Shown here: in pieces, positions 4,781 through 60,457 of the stretch
Numbering within the stretch: position 1 is the stretch's first letter
How the letters are laid out: every line of letters starts with the position of its first letter
Source: an uncultured Gammaproteobacteria bacterium
Lineage (GTDB): Bacteria; Patescibacteriota; Patescibacteriia; Magasanikbacterales; GWA2-37-8
Assembly (NCBI GenBank): GCA_964439885.1
Contig: CAYTPE010000001.1
Coordinates: 9,031-73,030, forward strand
Direction of reading: 5' to 3'
DNA length: 64,000 bases
Made by a program: the position numbers and the translations under genes
The notes under the pieces: generated by a model
Told to the model about the DNA's origin: nothing
What the model saw: only the letters and a program-made list of their open reading frames with translations
Database searches by the model: none

Positions 4781-4783
4781 CCT

Positions 4784-5638
4784 ATGGTACAGTGCTACTT
4801 GTGTCACAATAAAAAATTAGTTTTGAGAAACGATTCCACGCGCGATCGACCGGAAATAAAGGTTCTCCATTGCCCGGCGTGCGATCTCACGTTTCTTGCT
4901 TCGTTCAAACATTTGAACGATTTTTCGTATAACGACAGTAAGCACAACTACGATAAACCAATACCGAGCAAGGAGGCTTATACCATGTTACTCAAGGAGC
5001 TGTCCGGTGACGATCTCAGACGTGTTGAGCAACACAAAAAAATGATCACCGGCAAGCGCTTGTTGGATTTTGGGTGTGGCGCTGGTGGGTTTTTACTACA
5101 AGCTAAAAAGCATGCCAAAGAAGCATACGGCGTCGAGATTGATTCAATTACGCGGTTCTATAATAAAAAAGTCTCGGTAAAAAAATCCATCGAGGAATTC
5201 AACATGCAATTTGACGTTATCACACTCTTCCATGTTATCGAACATATACCGGATCCGATTGCACTACTCACCATGTTAAAAAAATTTCTTCGTCCCGGCG
5301 GTACCATTATTATCGAAGTGCCGAACGATCATGATGCGCTTATCTCGTATTACCAATTGCCTGCCTTTAAGAATTTTACCTATTGGAGCCTACATCTGTT
5401 TTCGTTTTCGCCCCAAAGCATTACCAGGCTTTTCCGCAACGCTGGGTATAAGCGCAGTCAGGTAACCTTTTTTCAGCGCTACTCATTTGCCAATCACATT
5501 GGGTGGCTTAAAGACGGCAAACCAGGTGGGCAGAACCGCTATCCAGAGATGGATACCCAAAAATTGAACGCCGCGTATGTCGCGCATTTGAAAAAAAACG
5601 GTCTGTGCGACACGCTGATTGCTTATTTAAAAAAGTAG
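4784..5638 (+). CDS. class I SAM-dependent methyltransferase with N-terminal C4 zinc ribbon
   Basis: 284 aa. N-terminal CYLCHNKK...CPACDL zinc ribbon, then methyltransferase motif I LLDFGCGAGGFLLQ...YGVEID. This architecture is typical of methyltransferases in sugar-modification clusters. Confidence 0.75.
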   Translation: MVQCYLCHNKKLVLRNDSTRDRPEIKVLHCPACDLTFLASFKHLNDFSYNDSKHNYDKPIPSKEAYTMLLKELSGDDLRRVEQHKKMITGKRLLDFGCGAGGFLLQAKKHAKEAYGVEIDSITRFYNKKVSVKKSIEEFNMQFDVITLFHVIEHIPDPIALLTMLKKFLRPGGTIIIEVPNDHDALISYYQLPAFKNFTYWSLHLFSFSPQSITRLFRNAGYKRSQVTFFQRYSFANHIGWLKDGKPGGQNRYPEMDTQKLNAAYVAHLKKNGLCDTLIAYLKK

Positions 5639-5641
5639 TGT

Positions 5642-7042
5642 ATGAAAGTACTTTATATTGGCGGTGGCTTTGTGGGAGCCTGTAGCGCCGCAGTTTCTGC
5701 CGACAGTGGCCACGAGACGATGGTATACGATATCGACCAACACAAAACAGCCTTGCTTTCGTCGGGCGATCGGACGCGCATTGAATCATGTCTTTTTGAA
5801 AAAGGATTGGGAGATTTACTGGTGCGTAACGCCGACCGAATTACTTTTACCAGTGACTATGCTGATGTGGAAGCTTTTTTAGATACCTGTGAGGTTGTAT
5901 TCATGTGTGTGCCCACTCCCGAAATCGATGAGACGGGCGAAAGTGACCTGTCGTATTATAATGCAGCCACGGAAAAACTTTCTACTTGTTTAGTAAAGCG
6001 CAACAGTGGCTCTCAAAGCAATTACATTGTCGTCGTTAATAAGAGTACCGTTCCTATTGATACGGTGAGCCGAACCGAGCAGATGCTGGCTGAGCGTGGT
6101 GTCAAAAATGTGGGCGTGGTTTCTAACCCGGAATTTTTGGTTGAGGGCAAAGCCGTGCAAGATTCCCTCAAACCGGATCGGATAGTGGTCGGCGCGCGCA
6201 CTGAGCGTGACTTTGAGGTTATGCGCCGTTTGTATCAGCGGTTTTACGATTCTCCCACGGTGCAATATTTACAAGTAAGCCCGGAAGAAGGTGCCGCCAG
6301 TAAATTGTTAGCAAATTATTATCTCTTCAATCGCTTGGCTGTTTGTTTCGATGTGATTGGCAGAACCTGTGAAGCTTTTCCTGGCCTAAAATTCGAAAAT
6401 ATTCGTCGCGTGCTTACCACCGATAAAAGAATCGGCGAGTGGGGTTTTTACGATAGTCTGTATGCCGGTGGAAGCTGTTTTATCAAAGATACTCGCTCGC
6501 TTGCGCACCAACTGCAGTCCGTTGGCTATGATGCGCCGCTCGTACGCGAAACACATGCCGCCAATCGTCGCCAACTGATGTCCTTTTTGAATCGCGCCGA
6601 GCGCGAGGCGCAGTACCAGTGGGTGGGAAAAAAGGTGGCGCTCCTCGGCGTTGCTTTTAAACGAGACACTAACGATGTCCGCAATTCACCAAGCAGTGAT
6701 ATCGTCCGCTTTCTCCATGATAAAAAAGTGGGGAACATTACCGTGTACGATCCGGCAGCGATGGATACTTTTAAAAAAACGATTTCCGCGGATTTAACAC
6801 TTCACTACGCACAAAATGAAAGTGAGGCTATACACGACGCCGATGTCATTATCGTGGCTACCGATTGGCCACAATTTCGTGGTGTCGCCGACCAGCTGGT
6901 AATGCAAATGAATAGCACACATACGAATAAGCCTGAGTTGATTATGGATTGTCGCCGCATGTTCCAACATCGCTATGACGATTTGCAAAAAAGCGGCTGC
7001 GCTATTATCGCGGTTGGTTCGCCGCTTATCTCACCTCAATAA
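5642..7042 (+). CDS. nucleotide-sugar dehydrogenase (UDP-glucose/GDP-mannose dehydrogenase family)
   Basis: 466 aa. N-terminal NAD-binding segment MKVLYIGGGFVGACSAA and the catalytic-cysteine motif GGSCFIKD. Confidence 0.8.
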   Translation: MKVLYIGGGFVGACSAAVSADSGHETMVYDIDQHKTALLSSGDRTRIESCLFEKGLGDLLVRNADRITFTSDYADVEAFLDTCEVVFMCVPTPEIDETGESDLSYYNAATEKLSTCLVKRNSGSQSNYIVVVNKSTVPIDTVSRTEQMLAERGVKNVGVVSNPEFLVEGKAVQDSLKPDRIVVGARTERDFEVMRRLYQRFYDSPTVQYLQVSPEEGAASKLLANYYLFNRLAVCFDVIGRTCEAFPGLKFENIRRVLTTDKRIGEWGFYDSLYAGGSCFIKDTRSLAHQLQSVGYDAPLVRETHAANRRQLMSFLNRAEREAQYQWVGKKVALLGVAFKRDTNDVRNSPSSDIVRFLHDKKVGNITVYDPAAMDTFKKTISADLTLHYAQNESEAIHDADVIIVATDWPQFRGVADQLVMQMNSTHTNKPELIMDCRRMFQHRYDDLQKSGCAIIAVGSPLISPQ

Positions 7043-7046
7043 TTGT

Positions 7047-8378
7047 ATGGTTTCTTTTGCAGAATTACAATCCAAACGTCAGTCAATCGTGGTTGTCGGG
7101 CTGGGATATGTCGGGCTGCCTCTCGCCATCGCACTTGCCAGACATTTCAAGGTGATTGGTTTTGATGTTAAAGAAAATAGGATTACCGAACTTCAAGCGC
7201 ACTACGACCGAACGAGAGAAGTCACTGCTGACGATCTAATGAGCAGCACAATGGAGTTTGTGAGCGATCCGGTTGAGGTACGGAAAAAGCTGTGCGGTGA
7301 GTCGGCGTTTATTATTGTGGCGGTACCAACTCCTGTAAACCAAAAAAACGAACCAGATCTTACACTTGTAGAAAAAGCGTCAGCGATGGTAGGAAAAGAT
7401 TTTCTTTCCCCCGGCAGCGTGGTAGTGTATGAATCCACTGTCTACCCGGGAGTCACCGAAGACATCTGCATTCCAATTCTTGAAGAAAAATCACAAACTA
7501 AACGTGGTATTGATTTTAAGGTCGGTTATTCGCCGGAGCGTATTAACCCGGGCGATCACGAGCACACTATCAACAAAGTCACTAAAATCGTTTCCGGCAT
7601 GGATGCTGAATCCCTCGACGTAATTGCCGCGGTGTATGGGAGTATTACCACTGTTTTTAAAGCCTCATCCATCAAAGTAGCCGAAGCGGCCAAGGTTATC
7701 GAAAATACCCAGCGCGATATCAATATTGCCCTGATGAATGAACTGGCAGTTATCTTTAGCAAGATGGGCATTTCCACGTACGATGTTCTGGCGGCCGCCG
7801 GTACCAAATGGAATTTTCTCAAATTTACACCTGGCCTCGTTGGGGGCCACTGTATCGGGGTGGATCCGTATTACCTCACACACCGCGCCGAGCAGCTCGG
7901 CTACACGCCAGAAGTCATTTTGTCGGGACGCAAAATCAATGATGGAATGGGGGAGTGGATCGTGGAGCAGGTAGTGCAGCGAAGTAAAAAGCTGGGTAAA
8001 GATATTACCAAGTGTAATGTACTTGTTTGCGGCATGACATTTAAAGAAAACGTCCCCGATGTACGCAATTCCAAAGTATGGGATATTATCCAAGCGCTTA
8101 AAAAGCGTGGCGCCCAGCCTACCGTGTATGATCCGATTGCCTATAAAGACGAAGTCGAGTATGAATATGATTTTAAGCTTGCCGAAACGGAGGCGCTTTC
8201 CCGTGGTAAAAATTATGACATTATTATAGTAGCAGTAGCCCACCGGGAATTTGTGAATATGACGTCAGAAGCTTGGCAAAAAATAGCGTCTTCGAACCAA
8301 CCAATGGTTGTTGATGTAAAAGGAGTTCTAAATAAAGCCGAACTTGAACGAGTTGGATTTTCTTATTGGACTTTATAA
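7047..8378 (+). CDS. nucleotide-sugar dehydrogenase (UDP-N-acetyl-mannosamine/glucosamine dehydrogenase-like)
   Basis: The ORF track starts at 6975, but an in-frame ATG at 7047 follows the upstream stop at 7042. IVVVGLGYVGLPLAIALA Rossmann segment and the catalytic-Cys motif LVGGHCIGVDPYYL. Confidence 0.8.
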   Translation: MVSFAELQSKRQSIVVVGLGYVGLPLAIALARHFKVIGFDVKENRITELQAHYDRTREVTADDLMSSTMEFVSDPVEVRKKLCGESAFIIVAVPTPVNQKNEPDLTLVEKASAMVGKDFLSPGSVVVYESTVYPGVTEDICIPILEEKSQTKRGIDFKVGYSPERINPGDHEHTINKVTKIVSGMDAESLDVIAAVYGSITTVFKASSIKVAEAAKVIENTQRDINIALMNELAVIFSKMGISTYDVLAAAGTKWNFLKFTPGLVGGHCIGVDPYYLTHRAEQLGYTPEVILSGRKINDGMGEWIVEQVVQRSKKLGKDITKCNVLVCGMTFKENVPDVRNSKVWDIIQALKKRGAQPTVYDPIAYKDEVEYEYDFKLAETEALSRGKNYDIIIVAVAHREFVNMTSEAWQKIASSNQPMVVDVKGVLNKAELERVGFSYWTL

Positions 8379-21238: not shown

Positions 21239-22365
21239 TTATGGCGAAGCTCTCTGTCCATCTCGTCTCCTGGAACGGTGCCAAATATATCCCATATCTT
21301 TTTGACTCTTTGCGCAAGCAAACCTACACAGACTGGGAATTATTTGTCGTCGACAACGCGTCGACTGACGAGACAGTTGCTTTGATTCAGAAAGAGCTTG
21401 TCAATTTTCCTTTTGCTTCGCGTGTTACAGTAAACACCACGAATACTGGTTTTGCGGGAGGGCACAACCAAGCGTTCAAAGCTGCGAGCGCTGAGTATTT
21501 TTTGTTACTCAATCAAGACATGTACCTCATGCCCGATTGTTTGGAGAAGATGGTACAGTTTCTCGATGAACATTCTGATGTGGCCGCTGTTTCGCCACGC
21601 CTGATGTGTTGGGCCTTTAGCGAGGATTTAAACGAATTTAAGGTTGATTCAGACAGATTTAGACAGAGTCTTACGCATCAGATTGACGCGCTGGGACTCA
21701 AAATTTTCCGCAATCGGCGAGTGGTGGAGCAGCATACGCGAGAAGAGTGGAGCGCATTTGTCATCCCCGACCATGATCGGGGATCTATCGCAAACGAACC
21801 GCAGAACGTGGATTCCCGTTTGCACGGGAATGACAGTGTCATAGTACTTGAAGTGTTTGGCGTTTCCGGTGCCTTCCCTATGTTGCGCCGTTCCATTATT
21901 AACGAAATTGTCTTTTCCGATGGAACGTTTCTGGATGAATCGTATCATTCGTACAAAGAAGATATGGACCTCGCGTATCGACTGGCTGCTCATGGAACAC
22001 GATCGTACATACTCAGCGATACGGTGGCGTACCACGATCGATCGGGAGCCGGCCCCAAGGAACTTTCCGACTGGGCAGCCGCCAAAAATAAATCCACCCA
22101 ATCGAGTTGGGTGCGCTACCATAGCTACAAAAATCATCTGATGACACTGTACAAAAACGAATACTGGCAGAACGCACTACTTGATGCGCCGTGGATATTG
22201 TGGTATGAAATTAAGAAGTTTGTTTATTTTCTACTGTTTGAACCGCGCGTGCTGAGGGGGTTAGGTGAGGTGTGGAAAATGCGTAAAGATTTGAAGATTA
22301 AAAGATTGAAGATTAAAGAATTAAGAAAGGTTGGTTGGCGGGAAATGAGAAAGTGGTGGCGGTGA
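21235..22365 (+). CDS. family-2 glycosyltransferase (contains an in-frame copy of a 29-nt repeat)
   Basis: LSVHLVSWNGAKYIPYL...FVVDNASTDETV GT2 N-terminus. Nucleotides 21808-21836 are identical to an intergenic MITE-like element at 30594-30622. Confidence 0.75.
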   Translation: MIMAKLSVHLVSWNGAKYIPYLFDSLRKQTYTDWELFVVDNASTDETVALIQKELVNFPFASRVTVNTTNTGFAGGHNQAFKAASAEYFLLLNQDMYLMPDCLEKMVQFLDEHSDVAAVSPRLMCWAFSEDLNEFKVDSDRFRQSLTHQIDALGLKIFRNRRVVEQHTREEWSAFVIPDHDRGSIANEPQNVDSRLHGNDSVIVLEVFGVSGAFPMLRRSIINEIVFSDGTFLDESYHSYKEDMDLAYRLAAHGTRSYILSDTVAYHDRSGAGPKELSDWAAAKNKSTQSSWVRYHSYKNHLMTLYKNEYWQNALLDAPWILWYEIKKFVYFLLFEPRVLRGLGEVWKMRKDLKIKRLKIKELRKVGWREMRKWWR

Positions 22366-30528: not shown

Positions 30529-30551
30529 CCAACAGTGAACGGTCTATTTTT

Positions 30552-30621
30552 TTGTCATTCCCGCCGGAGCGGGAATCTCGGGTATATAACGAAGTGGATT
30601 CCCGTTTGCACGGGAATGACA
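30552..30621. mobile_element. MITE-like double-hairpin element with terminal inverted repeat TTGTCATTCCC / GGGAATGACA
   Basis: TTGTCATTCCCgccggagCGGGAATctcgggtatataacgaagtggATTCCCGtttgcaCGGGAATGACAg. It has the same termini as the element at 36631-36736; the internal 29 nt recur at 21808-21836 and a degenerate copy lies at about 60245-60275. Confidence 0.5.
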
Positions 30622-30716: not shown

Positions 30717-30720
30717 TGTG

Positions 30721-30794
30721 TCGGGCTGACACGACTTGAACGTGCGACCTCATGCACCCCATGCATGCGCTCTAGCCAACTGAGCTACAGCCCG
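30721..30794 (-). tRNA. tRNA-Pro (anticodon GGG)
   Basis: 74-nt cloverleaf folded by hand from the reverse complement: acceptor CGGGCUG/CAGCCCG with the bacterial tRNA-Pro hallmark C1:G72, anticodon loop AUGGGGU, T-loop UUCAAGU. Confidence 0.8.
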
Positions 30795-30880
30795 GTGCTT
30801 CGTTTGCCTGTGGCGAACTACGCACCGTAAACTTTTACAAAACTGAAAGTTCACTGGGCGTAATTACAACAGAGTCGAAG

Positions 30881-30954
30881 TGAAGACTGGTCGGGATACC
30901 GGGATTTGAACCCGGAATCTCGTCGTCCCGAACGACGCGCCTTAGCCAATTAGG
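30881..30954 (-). tRNA. tRNA-Pro (anticodon CGG)
   Basis: 74-nt cloverleaf: acceptor CGGGAUA/UAUCCCG (C1:G72), anticodon stem CGUCG/CGACG with loop UUCGGGA, T-arm CCGGG-UUCAAAU-CCCGG. Confidence 0.8.
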
Positions 30955-31054
30955 CCATATCCCGTTTGAATATCCAGAGCATATCACACTTGGCTTTGCT
31001 TTTCAAGGACATGCGGAGTGTGCTACAATTGCCTCATTCATTTCTCACAATTCT

Positions 31055-32290: not shown

Positions 32291-33808
32291 ATGGACGGGA
32301 AAGAGGTATTTGAACTTATAGCCACAATCGCCAAACATAATAAAACTCCAACATATATCGTCGGTGGTTTTGTGCGTGACGCGCTGCTCGGTCGCGGGCA
32401 AAAAAAGGACATTGATTTTGTGGTGGTTGGTTCCGGCATTGCATTCGCAAAAAAATTTGATGAGGCAATGAAGCAGTCAGGCTCGCTTATTGAGTTTCCC
32501 GATTTTGATACGGCGCGGTATGTCATAAATCCCCGCTTGGGCGGGGAGCCGTCCGCCTTGGCGGCGGACGGGGGGTGGGTTGGTGAGAGCAACGAAACAC
32601 TTGTTTTGGAATTCGCGGGAGCGCGTACCGAAAAGTATGACGAGAAATCACGCAAACCAAAAGTGGAGGCAGCTAGTTTGGAAAAAGATTTGGAGAGACG
32701 AGATTTTACTGTGAATGCAATGGCAATAGATGTAACGAAATACGAAAGGTACGAAAATACGAAAGAGATAAGTGATATAGCGATTGATCCATTCAACGGT
32801 CGGCAAGACCTTGAAGATAAAATTTTGCGCACGCCGCTCGATCCGGATGTTACATTTAGTGACGATCCGCTACGTATGCTTCGCGCAGTGAGGTTCGCGG
32901 CTCAGCTTAATTTCAGTATCGAACCAAAAACACTCGAAGCCGTTCATCGAAATCGTGAGCGAATGAAAATCATTTCCGGTGAGCGAGTGCAAGAAGAACT
33001 TATTAAACTGATGGCGACTCCCGTGCCATCAATCGGACTGCAACTTATGTGGACCACAGGGCTCATGGATGTGGTACTCCCCGAAGTGTCGGCCCTGGAC
33101 GGTGTGGAAGAAATTTTTGGTCACCAACACAAAAACAATCTCGTACATAGTATCAAAGTAGTCGACAACATCGCCGAGTGGTCCACGAACCCGTGGCTAC
33201 GCCTCGCCGGGCTTCTCCACGACATTGGCAAACCCGGTACCAAGCAATTCCTCCCCAAAATTGGGTGGAGCTTTCACGCGCACGAGCACCTCGGTAAAAA
33301 ATTGTTTTATAACGTCGCGCGCCGCCTCAAACTCTCCAAAGAAAAAACCGATTATATCGCTAAGCTTATCCGCTGGCATCTACAGCCAATCGCGCTCATG
33401 GACGAAGGTATTACCGACTCGGCAGTGCGCCGGCTCATTGTCACAATGGGGGAGGAACTGGAGGATCTGCTCATCCTCGGTAAAGGTGACATTACTACGG
33501 GCAACCCGTATAAAAAAGAAAAAAGATTAAAGAATTACGATCGTTTGCGTTCAACGATTGATGACTTGATTGAGCGAGATAAACTCCGCGCCTTCCAGTC
33601 TCCGGTGCGCGGTGATGAGATAATGCAGCTGTGTGGGCTTAAACCTGGGCCAACGGTGGGTAAAATAAAAGAAGCCATTGAAGAAGCTATTCTCGACGGT
33701 AAAATTCCGAACGAGTATGACGCGGCGAAACAGTATTTCGAAGAGATTAAAGACGAGTATCTGAAAGAAGCAGCGCGATGGGAAAGAGAGGAAAATGGTA
33801 CGGAGTAA
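32291..33808 (+). CDS. cca: CCA-adding tRNA nucleotidyltransferase (head domain + HD domain)
   Basis: PTYIVGGFVRDALLGRGQKKDIDFVV nucleotidyltransferase signature, RDFTVNAMA, and the HD motif LLHDIGKP. Carries an approximately 40-aa insertion in the head domain. Confidence 0.8.
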   Translation: MDGKEVFELIATIAKHNKTPTYIVGGFVRDALLGRGQKKDIDFVVVGSGIAFAKKFDEAMKQSGSLIEFPDFDTARYVINPRLGGEPSALAADGGWVGESNETLVLEFAGARTEKYDEKSRKPKVEAASLEKDLERRDFTVNAMAIDVTKYERYENTKEISDIAIDPFNGRQDLEDKILRTPLDPDVTFSDDPLRMLRAVRFAAQLNFSIEPKTLEAVHRNRERMKIISGERVQEELIKLMATPVPSIGLQLMWTTGLMDVVLPEVSALDGVEEIFGHQHKNNLVHSIKVVDNIAEWSTNPWLRLAGLLHDIGKPGTKQFLPKIGWSFHAHEHLGKKLFYNVARRLKLSKEKTDYIAKLIRWHLQPIALMDEGITDSAVRRLIVTMGEELEDLLILGKGDITTGNPYKKEKRLKNYDRLRSTIDDLIERDKLRAFQSPVRGDEIMQLCGLKPGPTVGKIKEAIEEAILDGKIPNEYDAAKQYFEEIKDEYLKEAARWEREENGTE

Positions 33809-33900
33809 GCAGTGAATCGTTTACTCCTTATTCTTTACTCTTTACTCTTTTGAAAAAGCATGGTATGATAAGTATGAAATTACATATTTAACTTTTTTCT

Positions 33901-38094: not shown

Positions 38095-39327
38095 ATGAAT
38101 TTCACCCCCATACAACTCGCTTACGGCTCACTGGTTCGTCAAAAGAAACGAGCGATTTTAACGATGCTCGCGATTGCTATTGGTATTGCAGCTGTTATCA
38201 CTATTAGCGCGGCAGGAGCAGGGCTTCGAAGGCTGGTGCTGGGGCAGATCGATATTTTTGGCGCAAGTACGTTTCATATAGAAACCCGTGTGCCAAGCTC
38301 AAAAAGCTCTGGCGGGTTTGGTTCAGTTGGTATTACTATTACCACTCTCAAAGAAAAAGATGTGATTGATATGCTGAAACTCCCGAATGTGGAGGCGGCC
38401 GAAGGTGAAGTATCGGGCCAGGAAATCGTGAGCTATAACGGACAGATTAGCAAATCATTACTTTCTGGTGCCGGCTACTCATCACCTGAAGTGCAGGTGC
38501 TTGAATTTCAAGAAGGACGTTTCTATACCAAAGACGAAGAAGATTCGCTCGCACAGGTAGCAGTGCTCGGACCCAAAACCAAACAAAAATTATTTGGTGA
38601 TGATACGGCCGAAGGCAAAACTATCTACATCAAAGGCAAACCGTTCCGCGTGATTGGCGTTCTGAAGCCGCGTGGCGCAGCATTCTTTTTTGACCTCGAC
38701 AATATGGTGATGCTCCCCACTAAAACCATGCAAAAACGATTGCTCGGGATAGATTACTATGTGAGTATTTCCGGTAAATTTAAAGACGTAAACCAGTCCG
38801 AAAGTACCGCGAAGGATATTGCCTATATCTTGCGTGAAAATCACAATATAGCCGACGAGGCTCATGATGACTTTGTGGTGCAAACGACGGTGCAGGCGCA
38901 GTCGTCACTCAGTGCGATCACGAGCGGTATTACTCTATTACTTATCGCACTCGTCTGCATCTCGCTTATTGTAGGTGGAGTTGGCATTATGAATATCATG
39001 TATGTATCGGTAGCCGAACGCACCTTCGAAATCGGTTTGCGCAAGTCGCTTGGAGCCAAAGGACGCGATATTTTGGGTCAATTTTTGGCGGAGGCAGTGC
39101 TTGTGACGCTCGGCGGGGGAGTGGTGGGAGTCGTGCTCGGCGCGCTTTTGGCTTTGCTTATTTATCTTGGTGCCACTGCAGCCGGATTTAAATGGGTGTT
39201 CAGCATTTCTCTTTCATCTATCATTTTGTCAGTTTGCTTTTCCGGTTTTATTGGCTTACTCTTTGGCTTGTACCCAGCCAAAAAGGCCGCGGCACTCAAT
39301 CCAATCGAAGCACTAAGGAAGGAATAA
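38095..39327 (+). CDS. ABC transporter permease (MacB/FtsX-like), second copy
   Basis: 410 aa, same architecture (VSVAERTFEIGLRKSLGAKGRDI). Confidence 0.8.
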   Translation: MNFTPIQLAYGSLVRQKKRAILTMLAIAIGIAAVITISAAGAGLRRLVLGQIDIFGASTFHIETRVPSSKSSGGFGSVGITITTLKEKDVIDMLKLPNVEAAEGEVSGQEIVSYNGQISKSLLSGAGYSSPEVQVLEFQEGRFYTKDEEDSLAQVAVLGPKTKQKLFGDDTAEGKTIYIKGKPFRVIGVLKPRGAAFFFDLDNMVMLPTKTMQKRLLGIDYYVSISGKFKDVNQSESTAKDIAYILRENHNIADEAHDDFVVQTTVQAQSSLSAITSGITLLLIALVCISLIVGGVGIMNIMYVSVAERTFEIGLRKSLGAKGRDILGQFLAEAVLVTLGGGVVGVVLGALLALLIYLGATAAGFKWVFSISLSSIILSVCFSGFIGLLFGLYPAKKAAALNPIEALRKE

Positions 39328-39379
39328 TGTTGAGTGAAGGCTGGTGAATTGCCGTTGGGTACAAAAAATATTTTAAAAA

Positions 39380-39410
39380 AAATAAAACCTTGGACAAAGG
39401 TTTTTTTGTT
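39380..39410. terminator. bidirectional terminator hairpin flanked by an A-run and a T-run
   Basis: AAAAAAATAAAACCTTGGACAAAGGTTTTTTT. It terminates the + strand permease operon and the - strand tRNA(UCA)-containing transcript. Confidence 0.5.
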
Positions 39411-39411
39411 G

Positions 39412-39687
39412 TGTAGTAGCTGGCCTGCCTCGGCTGCTACAGCTTGCTCCATCACCACCGGAGGGTAAGGTGAGAGCACATGCTGTGCAGCCGAGGCGAG
39501 GTCACTTGGCCCTACGCACGTACGTGCGTAGGTAAAGAGAGCCGCGGGCACCCGCTCGTCGCCGCCATGCCTTGTTCGTTCACCGGGGGGCCGGAGTTTT
39601 CCGAACAGAGACACACACGCGGTCACGACTAGCGGGGCCCGAGGCCCGACTGTGCCAACCACGATGAAGCTGTGGCTGGCGTTTGGA
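39412..39687 (-). ncRNA. GC-rich highly structured RNA of unknown class, co-transcribed downstream of tRNA(UCA)
   Basis: About 276 nt at about 65% GC in an AT-rich context, with no plausible ORF. Contains several perfect or near-perfect helices, including the 22-nt palindrome CCTACGCACGTACGTGCGTAGG, GCCTCGGCTGC...GCAGCCGAGGC (11 bp, long-range), GGGCCtcgGGCCC and CCGGccccCCGG. Bounded by the tRNA on one side and a terminator on the other. Confidence 0.25.
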
Positions 39688-39757
39688 TGGGGCCAGGAGG
39701 ATTCGAACCTCCGCATTCCGGTTTGAAGCCGGACGCTCACCTCTGAGCCATAGCCCC
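39688..39757 (-). tRNA. tRNA-like gene with anticodon UCA (UGA-decoding; resembles Trp-type anticodon arm)
   Basis: Hand-folded 70-nt cloverleaf: acceptor GGGGCUA/UGGCCCC, D-arm GCUC-AGAGGU-GAGC (short loop), anticodon stem UCCGG/CCGGA with loop CUUCAAA (U33, U34-C35-A36, A37), 4-nt variable loop, T-arm GGAGG-UUCGAAU-CCUCC, discriminator A. No encoded CCA. Confidence 0.5.
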
Positions 39758-39898
39758 ATACACCAGCACCGCCGAAGCGGTGCCGTCCTCTCTCACGCAC
39801 ATGCATGCGTGAGAAAAAAGCGACCCCCAAACCCGGGATCCGTCCACGGGAGGGAACCCGCGACAAACCACGCGAGATCTGGGGGTCAGTTGGGCACA

Positions 39899-39927
39899 AG
39901 TAAACCAGTTTTGGTGTGTTTTGTCAA
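39899..39927 (-). promoter_or_regulatory. putative sigma70-type promoter (TTGACA-17-TTTACT) driving the tRNA(UCA)-structured RNA unit
   Basis: The reverse complement of 39899-39927 reads TTGACAaaacacaccaaaactggTTTACT, about 130 nt upstream of the tRNA 5' end. Confidence 0.3.
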
Positions 39928-40199: not shown

Positions 40200-40376
40200 T
40201 CAGCTCTTGTAGAGGTAGAACACGACGGCGCCCGCTCCGAAGAGCAGGCAGAGCCACGAGAAGTGGCTCATGAGTCGGGGGAAGAAGCGGAAGTTGTCCC
40301 GATCGATCCACCAGAGGATCCTCACCCAAACTCCCACTGCGAAGAGCAGTATTCCAAGCACTCGCCACGTTTCCAT
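40200..40376 (-). CDS. small (58 aa) two-helix membrane protein with atypical GC3-rich codon usage
   Basis: METWRVLGILLFAVGVWVRILWWIDRDNFRFFPRLMSHFSWLCLLFGAGAVVFYLYKS. A perfect GGAGGAGG ribosome-binding site lies 5-6 nt upstream of the ATG, which is unusual for this genome. Stop codon TGA; GC-rich hairpins downstream. Confidence 0.4.
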   Translation of the reverse strand: METWRVLGILLFAVGVWVRILWWIDRDNFRFFPRLMSHFSWLCLLFGAGAVVFYLYKS

Positions 40377-40695: not shown

Positions 40696-40965
40696 ATGGC
40701 CAATCGTCGTGCAAACGTGGTGCCGGGAGCTCCGGCGCCGGTTACTCCAGACCGTACCGCCGGGGCCGATGCCCCGACGCGGTACATGCCTCAGATCGAT
40801 GGCAGCAGTGCGGCCGACAAGCGGCATCGGCCGCTCGCTGACGGGCTGGCAGAGAGCCGGCTCGTCCAGATCGTCTGCCTGCGCCGCTACCTCTGGGTGG
40901 CGGGCGGAATCGCGGCCCTGGAGGCCGCTCTGCTGGCCGCGCTGGCGGCTAAGTTCCTCCTCTAG
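40696..40965 (+). CDS. small (89 aa) protein with Pro/Ala-rich N-terminus and a C-terminal transmembrane helix; GC3-rich codon usage
   Basis: GGGGGAGGaagaagATG ribosome-binding site. C-terminal RLVQIVCLRRYLWVAGGIAALEAALLAALAAKFLL. Followed by a strong 11-bp GC hairpin (GGGGTCTCGCC...GGCGAGACCCC). Confidence 0.4.
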   Translation: MANRRANVVPGAPAPVTPDRTAGADAPTRYMPQIDGSSAADKRHRPLADGLAESRLVQIVCLRRYLWVAGGIAALEAALLAALAAKFLL

Positions 40966-41086
40966 GAGGCTGACCCCGCGGGGTCTCGCCCGTGAGCGCT
41001 TTCGAGCGACCGGCGAGACCCCCGGGTCTCACTACTCCACGTATTGCTTTTTAAGCCGTGGGGTGATAAGGTTTGAGTGTTGTGTG

Positions 41087-41199
41087 AAAAGAATAAAGAG
41101 TAAAGAATAAAGAATAATAAACGAAACCACCACTCTTTACCTGCCTGCGTAGGCAGGCTCTTTACTCTTTACTCTTTACTCTTTACTCTTTACTCTTTC
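41087..41199. repeat. inverted heptamer tandem arrays (TAAAGAR x3 ... CTCTTTA x6) flanking a central GC hairpin, immediately upstream of dnaG
   Basis: aaaGAATAAAGAGTAAAGAATAAAGAAtaa ... GCCTGCgtagGCAGGC ... CTCTTTACTCTTTACTCTTTACTCTTTACTCTTTACTCTTTC. Confidence 0.6.
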
Positions 41200-46257: not shown

Positions 46258-49200
46258 ATGCATTTGGGAAGTGCTCGTACAATAGCTGCACAATTAGGCC
46301 GCATTACCGGCTATTTTTTGCTTTTTGTACTTGCTTTAGGGGGCCTTTTTGTTGATCCGTTTGTATCGACAGCTGCCACTGGTGTACCTAAAATTTTCAC
46401 CTATCAGGGTCGTTTGCTTGATGGGGCGGGGAATTTGCTTGGTGGCAATGGTACCAACTATTGTTTCCGTTTCTCGCTGTACGACAACGCCACCGTCGGG
46501 CAGGGCGCAAAGGTATGGCCGGCAGGAGTTCCGTCTACCATGACGCTACAAGTTAAGAGCGGTGTTTTCAACGGCGCAATCGGCGATCTTGCTGCGGGAG
46601 GGGATTTGCTTGATTATAATTTTCAGGATTCCGATGAGGTGTACTTGAACGTAGAAGTAGCAGCCCAGGTGGGTGGCTCATGCGCGGGTGTGGCATTCGA
46701 AACACTGGCTCCACGTCAGCGTGTGACTGCTAGCGGTTATGCCATCAACGCGAACACAGATGGCGGATTTACCACATCGCAGATTGCAACAGGCAGCCAG
46801 ATTCCCGTGCACACCAATGGTGCTATCGTGCTTGGTGGTGCCACTGCCGGGCTCAGTGCTACCAACGCAAACCCGCTTCTTTTGCAGGGGAGTGGTAGTG
46901 GTGACATTCAATTTTTTTCTGCACTGAATAAACTTTCTTCTGCCGGTAATTTAACATTGGCCGGATCACTCACTGCCAACGGCGCACTTCTCATCAACAA
47001 TGACGCGACTATTACTGGCACAACGACGTTGGCAACAACGAGTATTTCCAAAGCAACAATTGCGAATGCTACGGTGAATAATTTAACTGTAACGGGGGTG
47101 TGTTTTGGTTGTGGTGGGGGGGGGGCGGCAGGTGGGGTGAACACATCAACGGCAGGATACATGGCGTATTATCTGAATGGCACAAGCGTAACGGGCACAA
47201 GCATGGTGACCTTTGCTGGTAACACATTTACGGTTTCAGGTTTGTCTGTATTTACTGCTACCGCAACTTTTGCCACAACAAGCATTACGAACGCCGCTAT
47301 TGGCTCTGCTTCAGTAGGAAATTTGGTAGCTACAAACAGTACATCGACAAATAGCTTTGCTGAGGGGCTTGCTTATACCAATTTGTCTGGTGTCAATGCT
47401 ACTTCGACAAATTTGTTTGCGTCACAATTTAATTTTGTGAATGCAAATGGAACGAGTCTGACTTCTACGAATGCATTTTTTTCTAATTTAGCTGTAGGTA
47501 ATTTCAGTCCGACGAATTTGTCGACTTCTAACATTACCACTACCAATTTTGTCGCGACGGGCGCGGTGAGTCTGCCAGTTAACTCGGTGACCGACGCGAT
47601 GGTTTCGAACTCTTTGACTATTGACAACACGGGAAATATTTCCGCTACCGCTATCAATTCGGGAACACTTGGTAACAATGCTGTCACGTTGGCTCTCGGA
47701 TCTTTTGGCTCGATCACTGGAGCGCTTGGAGATGCCAACGTAGCGGACAATCTTACCATCAACGGTGGCACTATTAACAACACAACGATTGGCGCGTCGA
47801 GCCCCTCCACGGGTGTGTTTACGAACGCGACAGCTACCAATTTTGTTGCCTCGAATGTTACCACTACTAATTTGGCAGTGACGGGAGCACTAAGTGTGAC
47901 CTCACTCAACCCCACGAATTTGGCTTGGGTAAACGCCACGGGAACGAACAGTATTCTGAACAATGTAACAAGTACGAATTTGTCCGTCTCTGGCTTAACC
48001 ACTCTCGCCAACACCACCTTGACCAACGCCACCTCCACCAACTTCAACACCGTTGGCCTCACCTTCACCAACGCCACGGGCACCAACAGTGTCTTCACGA
48101 ACGCTACCAGTACCAACCTCTTTAGCACTGGCCTTGCCTTCACCAACTTAAACGGTACGAATGCCACCTCCACCAACTTCTTTGCCACCAACCTCGCGAG
48201 CCTTGGCCTGACCAGCACCTACGGCAACCTCTCCTTTATCACCGCCACCGGTGTCACCTCCACCAACGCGAGCTTTACGAACCTCAGTGCTGCCACCTTC
48301 AACCCCACCAATCTCACCTGGACCAACGCCACGGGGACCAACAGCGTCCTGACCAATGTGACCAGCACCAACCTCGCCGTCAGTGGCCTGGTTGCCTTAA
48401 CAGGGAACACCACCTTGACCAACGCCACCTCCACCAACCTCTTCTCAACCGGCCTCGCCTTCACCAACCTCTCTGGTACCAACGGAACAAGTACCAATTT
48501 CTTTGCCACGAACCTCGCGAGCCTTGGCATTACGTCCACGTATGGCACCATTACCTTCTTAACAACCAGCGGCATCACCTCAACCAACGCGAGCTTGACC
48601 AACGTTACCTCCACCAACCTGTCCGTCTCTGGCTTAACCACTCTCGCCAACACCACCTTGACCAACGCCACCTCCACCAACTTCAACACCGTTGGCCTCA
48701 CCTTCACCAACGCCACGGGCACCAACAGTGTCTTCACGAACGCTACCAGTACCAACCTCTTTAGCACTGGCCTTGCCTTCACCAACTTAAACGGTACGAA
48801 TGCCACCTCCACCAACTTCTTTGCCACCAACCTCGCGAGCCTTGGCCTGACCAGCACCTACGGCAACCTCTCCTTTATCACCGCCACCGGTGTCACCTCC
48901 ACCAACGCGAGCTTTACGAACCTCAGTGCTGCCACCTTCAACCCCACCAATCTCACCTGGACCAACGCCACGGGGACCAACAGCGTCCTGACCAATGTGA
49001 CCAGCACCAACCTCGCCGTCAGTGGCCTGGTTGCCTTAACAGGGAACACCACCTTGACCAACGCCACCTCCACCAACCTCTTCTCAACCGGTTTGGCATT
49101 TACTAATCTCAATGGTACCAATGGAACCAGCACCAACTTCTTTGCCACCAACCTCAGCAGTCTTGGCAGTACTTCCACCTACGGTAACATCTCCTTCATC

Positions 49201-52200
49201 ACGGCTAGTGGCATCACATCGACTAATGGTAATTTCACTAATTTAACAGCTTCGAACTTCATTCCAACCAATCTCACCTGGGTGAGTGCCACCGGTACCA
49301 ACACCGTTCTAACCAACGCCACATCAACCAACTTAAATACGGTTGGGTTAACCTTTACGAATGCCACGGGGACCAACGCTGTCTTGACCAACGCCACGTC
49401 AACCAACCTCTTCTCAACAGGTCTGGCATTTACTAACTTGAACGGCACGAACGCAACGAGCACCAACTTTTTTGCCACCAACCTAAGTAGTCTCGGGCTC
49501 ACCACTACGTATGAGAAAAGTACATTCCTTGTAGCGACAAATGCTACTTCAACTAATTCTTTTGTCACTAATCTATCAAGTCTAGGCATAACATCCACAT
49601 ACGCAAATCTTGGTTTCTTGGTAGGTACTAATATTACTTCAACAAATCAATACAGCAACGGTCTCACCTTTAATATCGCCACAGGTACCTCTATCACTAC
49701 TACAAATGCATATATCGCAAGTTTGGTCGTCGGCACATGTACGGGTTGTGGTGGCGGTGCGGCAAGCGGTGGTGTAAATACTTCGACAGCTGGAAATTTT
49801 GCTTATTATCAGGGTGCCAGCTCAGTCACCGGTACATCTGCCCTTACCTTGTCTGGTACGAATATTACTGCGAATGGCGCAGTAGCCTTAACTGCTACTA
49901 CCACCGCCACCAATCGTTTTATTAACACCATATCAAGCGGCTCAAATATATCAGTGGTCGGCAGCGTTGCTCTTGCCAACTCAGGTTCTAAACCATACAA
50001 CCTAGTACTTCGAGGACGGTATGCCTATGTAACAAATTTCGCTAGTTCTACCATATCTGTGGTTGATTTAAGCAATCCGGCAGCACCAACTGTAATTAAT
50101 ACAATTAGCGTTGGAATTAACGTCGGGCCAACAGGCATCGATAATGATAGTAGATATTTGTATGTTGCCGCGTCGTCTACGCCAAGCCTTTATATTTACG
50201 ATCTTTCAACTGCAGCAGCCCCGTCTCAAGTTGGTCAGTCGCTTTTGTCTTTTTCACCAACAGATATAGGAGTAGATGGTCATTTTGTCCTACTTCCGTC
50301 TCCGAGCTTTGGTCAGGTCCAAATTCGTGATATTAAATATCCAAATAATGTATCATCTGTTCCTGGCTTGGGTGGTGTTACTGGTGGAACCCGCATTACT
50401 ATCTTTGGTAAATATGCCTACTACTCGGGCTCTTCCAATCTGTATATTGCTGACGCCTCCAACCCTGCCTCAATGGTTGTTAATGGTAGTATTGCTATGC
50501 CTAATCAGGTTAATGGCGTGTATGTTGTAGACCGATACGCGTACGTATTAAATGGAGGCTCGTTAAACGTAGTTGATATTAGTACGCCCAGCGCTCCAGT
50601 AAATGTTGCGACCACTTCAATCGGCGGCACTCTCTGGGGAGTGGCTGGTACTGGCCGCTATCTCTACATTACAGATAAAGCCAACAGCTCCGTTGATGTC
50701 GTAGACGTGGCAAGCTCTACCAACCCAGTCTTAGTAAAAACCATTACAGGCTTTGCTTCACCGCAAGGCATCGCCGTTAACGGAAGATACGCCTACGTTG
50801 TAGATAATGGTGATGGTACTCTCTATGTAATTGATTTACAGGGAACGGAAGTGAGCTCTCTGGTGGCATATTCTGCCGATGTCGGTTCACAACAAATTAG
50901 AAATGATCTCTACATTGGCAACAAAGCTTTTGTGCTTGGAGGGTTGACTGTTGGTAGTTTGGGCATCGCGTCAGCCGGAGATCTTGTGGTCCAAGGCACC
51001 GGCAATTCTACACTAGCCGGCGCTTTGGTTGTTTCGTCATCCATTTCAGCAAGTGCTTTTTCTGTGTCTGATAATTCATTTTATACAAGTGTAGGAACAA
51101 CCTATATAACAAATCTAAACGCTACTAGCATTACCTCCACCAACCTCTTTTCTACCGGTCTCACCTTTACTAACGCTACAGGTACCAAGGCCATTTTCAC
51201 GAGCGCCACCTCGACGAATTTGTATACAACAAACGGCGTGTTTACTAATGCCACTACTACCAACCTGTATTCAAACGGGTTGGTCTTCTCACGCGCCACA
51301 AGTACGGCATTAACTTCCACCATCGCATACATCGGCAGCCTGACAGTCGGCAGCTGTTCAGGTTGTGGCGGCGGAGTCTCTTTGAGCGGCAATAATACAT
51401 GGAGCGGGCTAAATATATTTACCAATACTACCACATTAGCCACCACCACCATTTCAGGTATATTTGATGGTGATGCTAAATTCGTCCCAGCTAGCCCGAA
51501 TGGGAATGGTTTCCAAGTAATGAATTTAGAAAACGATGAGACGCTTTTCAGCGTCGGCCCTTCAGCAGGGAATGCTGATTTTGTGGCGATAGGGGATAGA
51601 AGTGCCGCGCTTACGACCACTACACTCTTATATGTTGATACCAAATCTGATGCTGGCGACCCCACGCCTCCACTGAGTGCGGACGGTGCTATCTATTATA
51701 ATTCGAATAGCAAAAAATTCCGGTGTTACGAAAATTCGTCATGGAAAAATTGTGATAGCGCTGCTAATGCTCAAACATTTACCGCCACAAGTACCTGGAA
51801 CAAGCCAAACGGTGTTACATATGTTACCGTGCGTTGTATTGGCGGTGGCGGTGGCGGTGGCGGCGGAAGTTCGAAGGCGGCTGGTGGTGCACGAGCTGGG
51901 GGCAGTGGCGGTGGCGGTGGCTCTGTGCTCATCAGAACATTTTTAGCTTCTGACGTAACATCTAGTATTGGTATTACTGTTGGCCAGCCAGGTGGGGCTG
52001 GCGCCGGCGGCGTAAACGGAGCCAACGGCACCAGCGGCAGCGCTGGTACTGCATCCAGTTTTGGCACGTATGTCACCTGTTATGGTGGTGGCGGCGGTTT
52101 TGGGGGCACAACTGCAGTGAATTCAGGTGGTACAGGTGGTGGTCACGGTGGTGCTGGTAATAGTGGCAGTGGTTCAGCTTCCACTGGCGGCTTGCCGGCT

Positions 52201-52704
52201 ACTGCCAGCAACGCAGTTGGTTTGTCGGGACAGGGTTCTGGTAGCAGCGCGGGTACGGCTTCTGGCCAACCATCCGAATGGGGTGGTGCTGCTGGTGGCG
52301 GATCTTCAATCACAGTAGCTAGTCAAAATGGCGGTACCTCGCTCTGGGGTTGTGGTGGCGGTGGCGCAGGTGGAAATATTACTACTGGTAACGTGGCCAA
52401 TGCACCAGGCGCTGGTGGTAACACCGGTGTTTGGGTTACGGCTGGCGGCGGCGGTGGAGCGGCTGGTTCAAGCGGTGCGGCTGGTACTAACGGCACCGAC
52501 GGAACGGGAGGAACCTCCTTGTTGTGCGGTAAAGGCGGCGGCGGTGGTGGATCTTCCACAAACGGTGCTAACAATGGCGGTACCGGTGGTAACGGTGGCG
52601 CTCCTGGCGGCGGCGGTGGTGGTGGTGGAGCCGGTACTACTACTGTTAATGGAGGTACTGGTGGCAGAGGAGGGGCAGGTGAGGTCGATGTATGGGCCTG
52701 GTAA
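46258..52704 (+). CDS. giant (2148 aa) secreted/cell-surface repeat protein: signal-anchor, Thr/Asn/Ser-rich ~106-aa tandem repeats, YVTN-type beta-propeller repeats, Gly-rich C-terminal domain
   Basis: N-terminal hydrophobic segment [15 protein letters not shown]. Low-complexity repeats of the form [46 protein letters not shown].... [29 protein letters not shown]... repeats (YVTN/LVIVD-like) follow. The final ~300 aa are about 45% Gly ([18 protein letters not shown]...[25 protein letters not shown]). Confidence 0.8.
47981..49258 (+). repeat. near-identical 639-bp (213-aa) tandem duplication inside the giant gene, itself composed of ~106-aa sub-repeats
   Basis: TGTCCGTCTCTGGCTTAACCACTCTCGCCAACACCACC... 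occurs at 47981 and again at 48620. Hundreds of following nucleotides are identical between the copies. Confidence 0.8.
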
Positions 52705-60213: not shown

Positions 60214-60384
60214 AGTATATGATTGCAGTAAGTTACTAGTCGTTTTTTGTCATTTCCGCTTTCGCCGGAACGAGATTGCTGAGATTGTTATATCTAGATT
60301 GTATCAAAAGACCGGCACAATGGCAAAAGTTAAACGAGAGCATCGCAGTAAACAAAAACACCACCTGTCGGCGGGTTTTTGTTG

Positions 60385-60457
60385 TGGGTCGGCTGGGGTT
60401 CGAACCCAGGACCTTATCCTTAAAAGGGATCTGCTCTACCAGCTGAGCTACCGACCC
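60385..60457 (-). tRNA. tRNA-Lys (anticodon UUU)
   Basis: 73-nt cloverleaf: GGGUCGG-UA-GCUC-AGCUGGUA-GAGC-A-GAUCC-CUUUUAA-GGAUA-AGGUC-CUGGG-UUCGAAC-CCCAG-CCGACCC-A; closely resembles bacterial tRNA-Lys(UUU). Confidence 0.85.

Follow-up and report, generated by a model that had tools for sequence, protein, structure and literature searches.

A strongly folded GC-rich trailer downstream of a tRNA(UCA) gene in the macB2-dnaG spacer of a candidate-phylum bacterium

Why would a bacterial tRNA gene with a stop-codon anticodon be followed by 276 nt of GC-rich, palindrome-dense DNA before its terminator is reached? This question is raised by positions 39412-39687 (minus strand) of a 64,000-nt stretch (the window) of contig CAYTPE010000001.1 from an uncultured bacterium. 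The segment, hereafter the trailer, directly follows a gene for a tRNA with anticodon UCA, and the original prediction, made from the letters alone, described it as a structured non-coding RNA (ncRNA) of unrecognised class. The trailer is indeed strongly structured in silico and matches no Rfam family, but the notion of a conserved class is not supported, as no homolog of the trailer was found in the collections and relatives searched. We tentatively favour the reading that these 276 nt are the 3' external transcribed spacer (3' ETS) of a lineage-specific, non-canonical tRNA unit, with hairpins that would stabilise and insulate the precursor. The trailer would then not be an independently conserved ncRNA, and it appears to be unique to this genome.

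The tRNA(UCA) unit and its trailer

The trailer has a GC content of 64%, compared with 47.5% for the window, in agreement with its description as a GC-rich tract. The minimum free energy (MFE) of its fold is -150.4 kcal/mol, against -109.8 +/- 5.1 kcal/mol for dinucleotide shuffles (z = -7.9 to -8.7), and the folding check suggested with the original prediction thus places the structure far beyond the shuffles, at a z of about -8. The whole unit reaches z = -12.2, and coding controls, GC-rich ones included, range from 0 to -2.4. The MFE fold of the trailer consists of four autonomous hairpins, H1 to H4, with no multi-branching.

A mechanical 245-codon stop-free frame (39162-39899, minus) spans island A, the GC-rich tract in which the tRNA and trailer lie, and runs through the tRNA itself. 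No codon periodicity was seen in this frame, Pfam gave no match to it, and its single phmmer match among 1.84 billion proteins is a tandem-repeat artefact. A Pfam search of six mechanical open reading frames (ORFs) likewise returned no matches, and retranslation with TGA as a sense codon gave no convincing ORF in island A. Lacking codon periodicity and protein homologs, a protein-coding gene was rejected as a candidate; the earlier statement that the region holds no credible ORF is borne out, and the trailer is non-coding.

Read on the minus strand, the order of elements is promoter-like site, structured leader, tRNA(UCA), four hairpins and terminator. The trailer thus shares the strand of the tRNA, with a promoter-like site before it and a terminator after it, as had been proposed. 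Relatives were compared throughout; the informative ones, L103 to L115, of which L103 is the nearest, were obtained by a macB2 protein search followed by contig look-ups, at 66-70% identity. The unit comprises the following elements.

39899-39927, minus: promoter-like site, TTGACA (39927-39922), a 17-nt spacer and TTTACT (39904-39899), read from the sequence
39821-39888, minus: leader hairpin L1, 24 pairs with apical CCCUCCCG, then a U6 tract at 39814-39819; terminator-like
39792-39813, minus: hairpin P2, CTCACGCA-TGCATG-TGCGTGAG, related to the H3 palindrome
39764-39785, minus: UUCG-tetraloop hairpin directly 5' of the tRNA, from the MFE fold; L103 has a hairpin at the same position
39688-39757, minus: tRNA with anticodon UCA, found by the Rfam tRNA model and by ARAGORN
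39654-39680, minus: trailer hairpin H1, GCCAGCCAC / GUGGUUGGC, 9 bp with a 9-nt loop
39539-39647, minus: trailer hairpin H2, long and bulged, about 42 bp, apical CCGG-CCCC-CCGG
39511-39532, minus: trailer hairpin H3, the perfect 22-nt palindrome CCTACGCACGTACGTGCGTAGG
39418-39506, minus: trailer hairpin H4, 11-bp GCCUCGGCUGC/GCAGCCGAGGC arms around a bulged hairpin, apical CCCUCC
39378-39410, both strands: bidirectional terminator, the AT-rich inverted repeat I15, shared with macB2 (stop codon at 39327)

The individual elements named in the original prediction were largely recovered. The 22-nt palindrome at 39511-39532 is perfect, the 11-bp arms GCCTCGGCTGC/GCAGCCGAGGC lie at 39427-39437 and 39487-39497, and the helices CCGGccccCCGG and GCCAGCCAC...GTGGTTGGC are present, as is GGGCCtcgGGCCC, the bases of which pair within H2 instead in the MFE fold. 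A second 22-nt palindrome, placed at 39791-39812, corresponds to a related hairpin (P2), but this lies at 39792-39813 and is not perfect, having 8+8 arms around a 6-nt centre. The motif ACGCAYRYRYRTGCGT (ACGCA-N6-TGCGT) occurs exactly twice in the window, in P2 and H3, where 0.06 copies are expected, and the two palindromes bracket the tRNA at a distance of 281 bp. Both boxes of the proposed TTGACA-17-TTTACT promoter were found and are kept in L103; a consensus promoter scanner did not call the site because its -10 box is weak. The bidirectional terminator was recovered as I15; its final stem is weak and AT-rich, and the form AGGnnTTTTTTTATT recurs beside macB2 in L103, L106 and L111. A terminator scan also called L1 with its U6 tract (39888-39814), inside the leader.

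The strand on which these hairpins are most stable differs among them. H1 has an energy of -16.1 kcal/mol on the minus strand versus -12.6 on the plus strand, and H2 of -63.8 versus -53.9, with four G-U pairs against one. The leader is likewise more stable on the tRNA strand (-81 versus -63 kcal/mol; 12-14 G-U pairs versus 2), and the body of the L103 island has -98.3 kcal/mol against -80.7 on the opposite strand, both of its long hairpins, X and Y, favouring the transcribed strand. H3, as a perfect palindrome, has no strand asymmetry, and H4, with 32 Watson-Crick pairs and one G-U pair, is slightly more stable on the plus strand. As modelled, the difference between strands speaks for folding as RNA in the leader, H1 and H2, but not in H3 and H4.

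The tRNA itself is a standard 70-nt cloverleaf (G1-C72 to G4-C69, A73, CCA not encoded) that scores 69.5 bits on the Rfam tRNA model (RF00005, model positions 1-71), where at least 29 bits are required; it has a 6-nt D loop and a 4-nt variable loop, from which the host Pro and Lys tRNAs differ. ARAGORN labels it 'SeC' because the anticodon alone decides that label. A bacterial selenocysteine tRNA would have 8+5 acceptor/T helices, a 6-bp D stem, a long variable arm and about 95 nt; with its 70 nt, 7+5 arrangement and 4-nt variable loop, tRNA(UCA) was rejected as such. Its nearest counterparts are the tRNA-Pro(UGG) that L106 carries at this site, with about 73% identity, the 5' half of tRNA-Arg(ACG) in L111 and a phage tRNA-Arg(CCG), and UCA is one change away from the Arg anticodons UCG and UCU. 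By its anticodon, we regard tRNA(UCA) as a candidate opal suppressor. The 21 metagenomic tRNA(UCA) genes that we retrieved are other tRNA types, one of them within a 20-tRNA phage-type array; a tRNA(UCA) on the 172-kb metagenome contig L100, which has an array of 20 tRNAs, shares 82% identity with that of the window over 44 nt. No recombinase was seen among the neighbouring ORFs and no direct repeat of the tRNA 3' end (22 nt, up to 3 mismatches) was found, so that an integrative element at the tRNA gene, without integrase or repeat, was dropped from consideration. In the same spacer, ARAGORN also reports an 89-nt 'tRNA-Pro(tgg)' at 40887-40975 (plus), inside ORF C, which has no Rfam tRNA support even at E <= 10 and is probably a false positive in GC-rich DNA.

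Against Rfam 15 (4227 models, run on the window, the 2-kb spacer and a 300-nt trailer segment at gathering and permissive thresholds) the tRNA alone passes, the only sub-threshold match within 39400-39700 being mir-874 (16 bits, E = 3.3). No model of transfer-messenger RNA (tmRNA), RNase P, signal recognition particle (SRP) RNA or a ribozyme is among the matches, consistent with the original exclusion of tmRNA, RNase P P4 motifs, SRP domain IV and hammerhead cores. Neither ARAGORN nor the Rfam tmRNA models found a standard or permuted tmRNA, which would require a tRNA-like domain formed from both ends and a tag reading frame; ROOL and GOLLD gave no Rfam match at E <= 10, and the fold is one of four independent hairpins; and a repetitive extragenic palindrome (REP) or miniature inverted-repeat transposable element (MITE) was rejected as there is no second copy in the window or the related loci. 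The search for homologs that the original prediction had proposed covered collections of phages, plasmids, viruses, metagenomes and genomes, and yielded none for any part of the trailer. BLASTN against phages and plasmids matched only the body of a tRNA-Arg(CCG), and against E. coli genomes nothing; exact and degenerate scans of IMG/VR for the 22-nt palindrome and three tRNA patterns were empty; two patterns run on JGI metagenomes returned either nothing or unrelated tRNA(UCA) genes; about 1 Mb of syntenic Magasanikbacteria loci contains no trailer homolog; and 80 GTDB dnaG loci contain neither a tRNA(UCA) nor a homolog of island A. Judged by these searches, the trailer belongs to no described family.

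The leader and the macB2-dnaG spacer in relatives

The window and L103 share the promoter boxes, L1 and the position of P2, with a local alignment score of 76 against a null maximum of 30. TTGACA-17-TTTACT aligns with TTGACT-17-TTAACT in L103, and L1 matches L103 6500-6588 with 24 of 24 pairs kept, six of them compensatory, five one-sided and none broken, where slid controls give 0-1 compensatory pairs. Held to the generic standard for a conserved ncRNA, the trailer yielded no homologs and L1 has six compensatory pairs in 24 with none broken; drawn from two sequences only, this covariation is positive, but suggestive rather than proof. A covariance model of L1 (R1) recovered only the window and L103 copies from 1.05 Mb of related DNA. 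At the position of P2, L103 has a hairpin of different sequence with two compensatory pairs (read by hand), and because the sequences differ, an RNA structure is favoured over a sequence-specific DNA site. Downstream of the leader, the sequence of the window is not significantly similar to that of L103, L106 or L111. In these alignments, the conserved parts are the promoter and the leader hairpin only, both outside the flagged span and in one relative. The L103 island comprises promoter, leader hairpin, two small hairpins, the long hairpins X and Y and a terminator, with no tRNA; its fold has z = -9.95, and an independent Logan assembly (L104) confirms it.

The gene order hlyD-abc-macB1-macB2-dnaG-rpoD is kept across Magasanikbacteria, with a macB2-dnaG spacer of 47 nt to 3.9 kb. 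The cargo of this spacer is unrelated between genomes (L001 to L115) and often has 60-73% GC; examples are HD-domain-like, SPFH-like, DHBP-synthase-like and nucleotidyltransferase proteins, small membrane proteins and tRNA units. The spacer is nearly empty in L105, with 56 nt, and in L113, with 131 nt. Judged by its contents across genomes, the spacer is an insertion hot spot.

Several relatives carry minus-strand tRNA units at this site. L115 has a tRNA-Pro(UGG) with plain flanks, preceded by a truncated Phe(GAA)-like tRNA (read by hand). In L111, about 185 nt of structured leader precede a tRNA-Arg(ACG), a trailer hairpin and a terminator, and L106 has a leader, an odd tRNA, a 174-nt structured spacer, a tRNA-Pro(UGG), a trailer hairpin homologous to that of L111, and a terminator. 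The odd tRNA of L106 (6672-6747, minus; 47.7 bits), the first in its unit, has an anticodon loop of 9 nt and a mismatch in the first acceptor pair; because it occupies the same site, the slot holds a second non-canonical tRNA. The terminator on the macB2 side has the same form in the window, L103, L106 and L111. Homology of H4 to the L106/L111 trailer hairpin was suggested by eye and by MAFFT, but was rejected when a covariance model of that hairpin found no match to H4.

Two side observations concern the same region in other relatives. The spacer of L005 contains a GC-rich island (4195-4640, minus) with a fold z of -7.4 and a 17-bp GC terminator hairpin, and a very basic 62-aa ORF (MANSVKAEKRREK...) whose ribosome-binding site and start resemble those of ORF C. 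In L071, dnaG (4669-7614, plus) encodes 981 aa with an insertion of about 390 aa directly after the zinc-finger CFGC motif, which looks like an intein.

Standard-code ORFs lie densely and contiguously along the window, which is part of a bacterial chromosome. The genes near the unit encode an HlyD-like protein, an ABC ATPase, two MacB/FtsX permeases, DnaG, RpoD and a MurG-like protein, and the closest relatives of DnaG belong to Candidatus Magasanikbacteria metagenome-assembled genomes (Patescibacteria/Candidate Phyla Radiation, CPR), at up to 60% identity. Stop codons in the 49 window ORFs are TAA (34), TAG (9) and TGA (6), and since TGA is thus in use, it serves as a stop in the host. The 1.9-kb spacer between macB2 (stop at 39327) and dnaG (start at 41206) contains the three GC-richest islands of the window, each bordered by AT-rich promoter-like and terminator-like DNA.

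39412-39895, minus: island A, containing tRNA(UCA)
40200-40376, minus: island B, a 58-codon two-transmembrane ORF with a third-position GC content (GC3) of 0.80
40696-40965, plus: island C, an 89-codon tail-anchored ORF

In the ordinary tRNA units of the host, Pro-Pro at 30720-30964 and Lys at 60384-60457, the leader is short and AT-rich and the terminator follows at once, which makes island A atypical among host tRNA genes. A thermophile GC effect was dropped as a cause of the GC-rich island, since the ordinary units have no such flanks. A hairpin with TGACAAAAAAA behind it (for example, TTCCCGCTCCGGCGGGAATGACAAAAAAA) recurs downstream of these units, at about 30550-30610 and 60245-60275.

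ORF B, about 300 nt from tRNA(UCA), has a strong ribosome-binding site and ends in TGA, after which a GC-rich in-frame extension of 30 codons continues to about 40107. It has no homolog besides itself. L001 and L107 encode 94-aa two-transmembrane proteins with a basic, proline-rich tail at the position of ORF B; the extended ORF B has no significant similarity to the L001 protein (BLASTP E = 1.4). GC-rich small ORFs also lie just 5' of dnaG in the window (40696-40965, plus), L103 (6752-7237, plus) and L112 (about 2350-2680, plus, where the gene caller picked a different frame); all three encode a disordered N-terminus and a C-terminal membrane anchor, with no detectable sequence similarity between them, and no homologs of the small neighbouring ORFs were found.

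The hairpins of these islands share C-rich apical loops: UUCCCU/CCCUCCCG in L1 of the window and L103, ACUCCCCCUCCCC in hairpin X of L103, AACACCCCCUC in the L106 spacer, and CCCC in H2 and CUCC in H4 of the trailer. CCCUCC occurs twice in each of the window and L103 islands, in or directly next to apical loops, against roughly 0.2-0.3 expected per island, and the X loop ACUCCCCCUCCCC is a perfect 10-nt complement of the ribosome-binding site GGAGGGGGAG of the neighbouring L103 gene. A scan for ungapped complementarity set island A RNA against the mRNAs of B and C, and the L103 RNA against its neighbour; in both cases the best match was no better than in shuffles. Type I toxin-antitoxin or antisense pairing of island A RNA with neighbouring mRNAs was rejected on this result. 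We consider the possible shared C-rich loop motif a lead, not a finding.

Three further features of the window were seen in passing. Directly 5' of the dnaG start, 41088-41198 contains a 30-nt inverted repeat around the GC hairpin CCTGCCTGCGTAGGCAGG, made of tandem 7-nt units (AAAGAAT/AAAGAGT x4 ... CTCTTTA x6). Similar heptamer runs occur at 33821-33851, 33514-33535 and 22300-22327, as well as in L050, L057, L060 and L068. A 2148-codon ORF at 46258-52704 (plus) has a skewed stretch at 48-49 kb (GC skew -0.45, GC 0.57).

Weighing the explanations

The 3' ETS reading that we tentatively favour rests on the layout of the locus, in which promoter, tRNA, trailer and terminator follow one another on one strand; from this we infer co-transcription, processing and a stabilising or insulating role. 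The variable slot, the minus-strand tRNA units at the same site, the shared form of the terminator and the L103 leader without a tRNA lend it support. So do the lack of trailer homologs in our searches and of any coding signal or protein match, the four autonomous hairpins, and the short AT-rich flanks of the ordinary host tRNA units, beside which this unit is a special case. In such a unit, a single precursor would be transcribed from the conserved TTGACA-17-TTTACT promoter, and the conserved L1 with its U tract would limit or stabilise read-through. The tRNA(UCA), whose CCA is not encoded, would be excised by RNase P and RNase Z. The stacked hairpins H1-H4 would be a barrier to 3'-to-5' exonucleases and would shield the unit from the macB2 transcript that converges on it, and a stable trailer fragment of about 280 nt would remain as a by-product. 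Because the trailer is not conserved even in the nearest relative, a fast-evolving processed spacer seems likelier than a new conserved RNA class. Several observations pull in the opposite direction. A z near -8 and about 95 base pairs represent far more structure than a passive spacer needs, and the clearly greater stability of H1, H2, X and Y on the transcribed strand suggests selection on the RNA fold. Apical CCCUCC or CCCC loops recur in hairpins of the window, L103 and L106, a hint that these have a function in common even though their sequences have turned over. L1, as an internal terminator-like element, might stop transcription before the tRNA is reached, and the leader is known from two genomes whereas the trailer is known from one.

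Alternatively, trailer and leader might be a trans-acting, multi-hairpin small RNA or sponge released by tRNA processing, its CCCUCC and CCCC loops mimicking an anti-Shine-Dalgarno sequence and either pairing with G-rich ribosome-binding sites, such as those of the GC-rich genes for small membrane proteins nearby, or titrating a protein. We consider this possible but doubtful. The extreme predicted stability, the strand-specific G-U pairs of the leader, H1, H2, X and Y, the two CCCUCC copies in each island with a related loop in L106, the perfect match of the L103 loop to its neighbour's ribosome-binding site and the long G-rich ribosome-binding sites of the neighbouring ORFs all fit such an RNA. 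However, the complementarity to neighbouring mRNAs does not exceed that of shuffles, any C-rich loop will match any Shine-Dalgarno sequence, matches in the window are of 6-7 nt only, H3 and H4 have no bias towards the RNA strand, and both sequence and architecture of the trailer have changed even in L103. The strand-neutral hairpins would instead suit palindromes that act, or arose, at the level of DNA, as young inverted duplications or as footprints of recombination or mobile DNA in a hot spot, with a high GC content due to foreign origin or biased gene conversion and RNA folding as a side effect. The unrelated, often GC-rich cargo of this site in many relatives, the perfection of H3, the near-complete Watson-Crick pairing of H4 and its slight preference for the plus strand, the ACGCA-N6-TGCGT palindromes on either side of the tRNA and the foreign-looking codon usage of ORF B (GC3 0.80) are compatible with this. 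We nevertheless think it unlikely: neither integrase, transposase, tRNA 3'-end repeat nor second copy was found in the 64-kb window or 1 Mb of relatives, P2 keeps its position in L103 as a hairpin of another sequence, the leader, H1 and H2 are strand-biased, and AT-rich promoters and terminators frame the island neatly.

The anticodon invites a further proposal, in which an attenuator-like L1 and the trailer set the dose of an opal-suppressor tRNA that reads through UGA, for example at the end of the adjacent 58-codon membrane ORF B. The tRNA is intact and high-scoring in a genome where TGA is a stop (6/49), L1 between promoter and tRNA resembles an intrinsic terminator, the GC-rich island continues exactly across the 30-codon extension behind the TGA of ORF B, and two-transmembrane proteins of 94 aa occupy the ORF B position in L001 and L107. 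Yet the extended product does not significantly resemble the L001 protein, ORF B has only itself as a match, L103 keeps the leader without any tRNA, and the window showed no further candidates for read-through; we therefore hold a regulated recoding module of this kind to be highly improbable. A broader version, an undescribed, self-contained recoding and regulatory module with a suppressor tRNA in a scaffold RNA, whose leader and C-rich hairpins would gate its dose and affect the GC-rich genes for small membrane proteins nearby, including by TGA read-through of ORF B, strikes us as a long shot. It is scarcely credible that the island represents an assembly chimera or a protein-coding gene that has decayed or escaped recognition. 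The stop-free frame spans it, its composition is unlike that of the host, and there is one assembly of this genome, but the frame passes through a tRNA without codon periodicity, Pfam match or any phmmer match beyond the artefact, and L103, whose own island is confirmed by an independent assembly, has a homologous promoter and leader in syntenic position.

Known systems and the tRNA slot

External transcribed spacers of tRNAs can persist as RNAs, as in the 3'ETS-leuZ sponge of E. coli. The trailer resembles 3'ETS-leuZ in being a non-coding segment that adjoins a tRNA and that, by analogy, could be freed by ordinary tRNA processing and act in trans; unlike the known 3'ETS examples, which measure about 50 nt, have weak structure and owe their definition to pairing with specific small RNAs, it has 276 nt and four very stable hairpins. 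Species 1 and 2 RNAs of the phage T4 tRNA cluster are structured, processed together with tRNAs, phage-borne and about 120-140 nt in length, and, although no sequence relationship is expected, they resemble the trailer as structured RNAs encoded together with a tRNA. RsaE/RoxS-type small RNAs of Firmicutes are known for C-rich loops, and the several hairpins of the trailer have C-rich loops that could likewise pair with Shine-Dalgarno sequences. In contrast to that type, there is no sequence or Rfam relationship, pairing with neighbouring mRNAs is not above chance, and the host is a CPR bacterium.

ROOL and GOLLD are large structured RNAs near tRNA islands, and tRNAs are sometimes embedded in the GOLLD linker (PMC12286853). 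Like these phage and prophage RNAs, the trailer is a structured RNA near a tRNA; it differs in its length (276 versus about 580-800 nt) and in the absence of multi-branched or pseudoknotted structure, phage context and conservation. The tRNA(UCA) is similar to phage opal and amber suppressor tRNAs in its normal-looking cloverleaf, its stop-codon anticodon and its location in accessory DNA; unlike them, it is a single chromosomal gene with no phage genes nearby, at a site that holds tRNA genes in relatives.

If the trailer is only a spacer, the locus would serve as a caution that a high GC content and an extreme fold z alone, here in a 47% GC genome, are not the mark of a conserved RNA family. 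The locus can be regarded as a tRNA 'slot' that keeps its promoter, leader and terminator, while the identity and number of tRNAs and the flanking RNA structure turn over between close relatives. Provided that it is expressed and charged, the tRNA would be a natural opal suppressor on the chromosome of a standard-code candidate-phylum bacterium, accompanied by far more RNA structure than the host's ordinary tRNA genes have. Since sister CPR lineages read UGA as glycine, the tRNA(UCA) unit may bear on how the reassignment of a stop codon starts.

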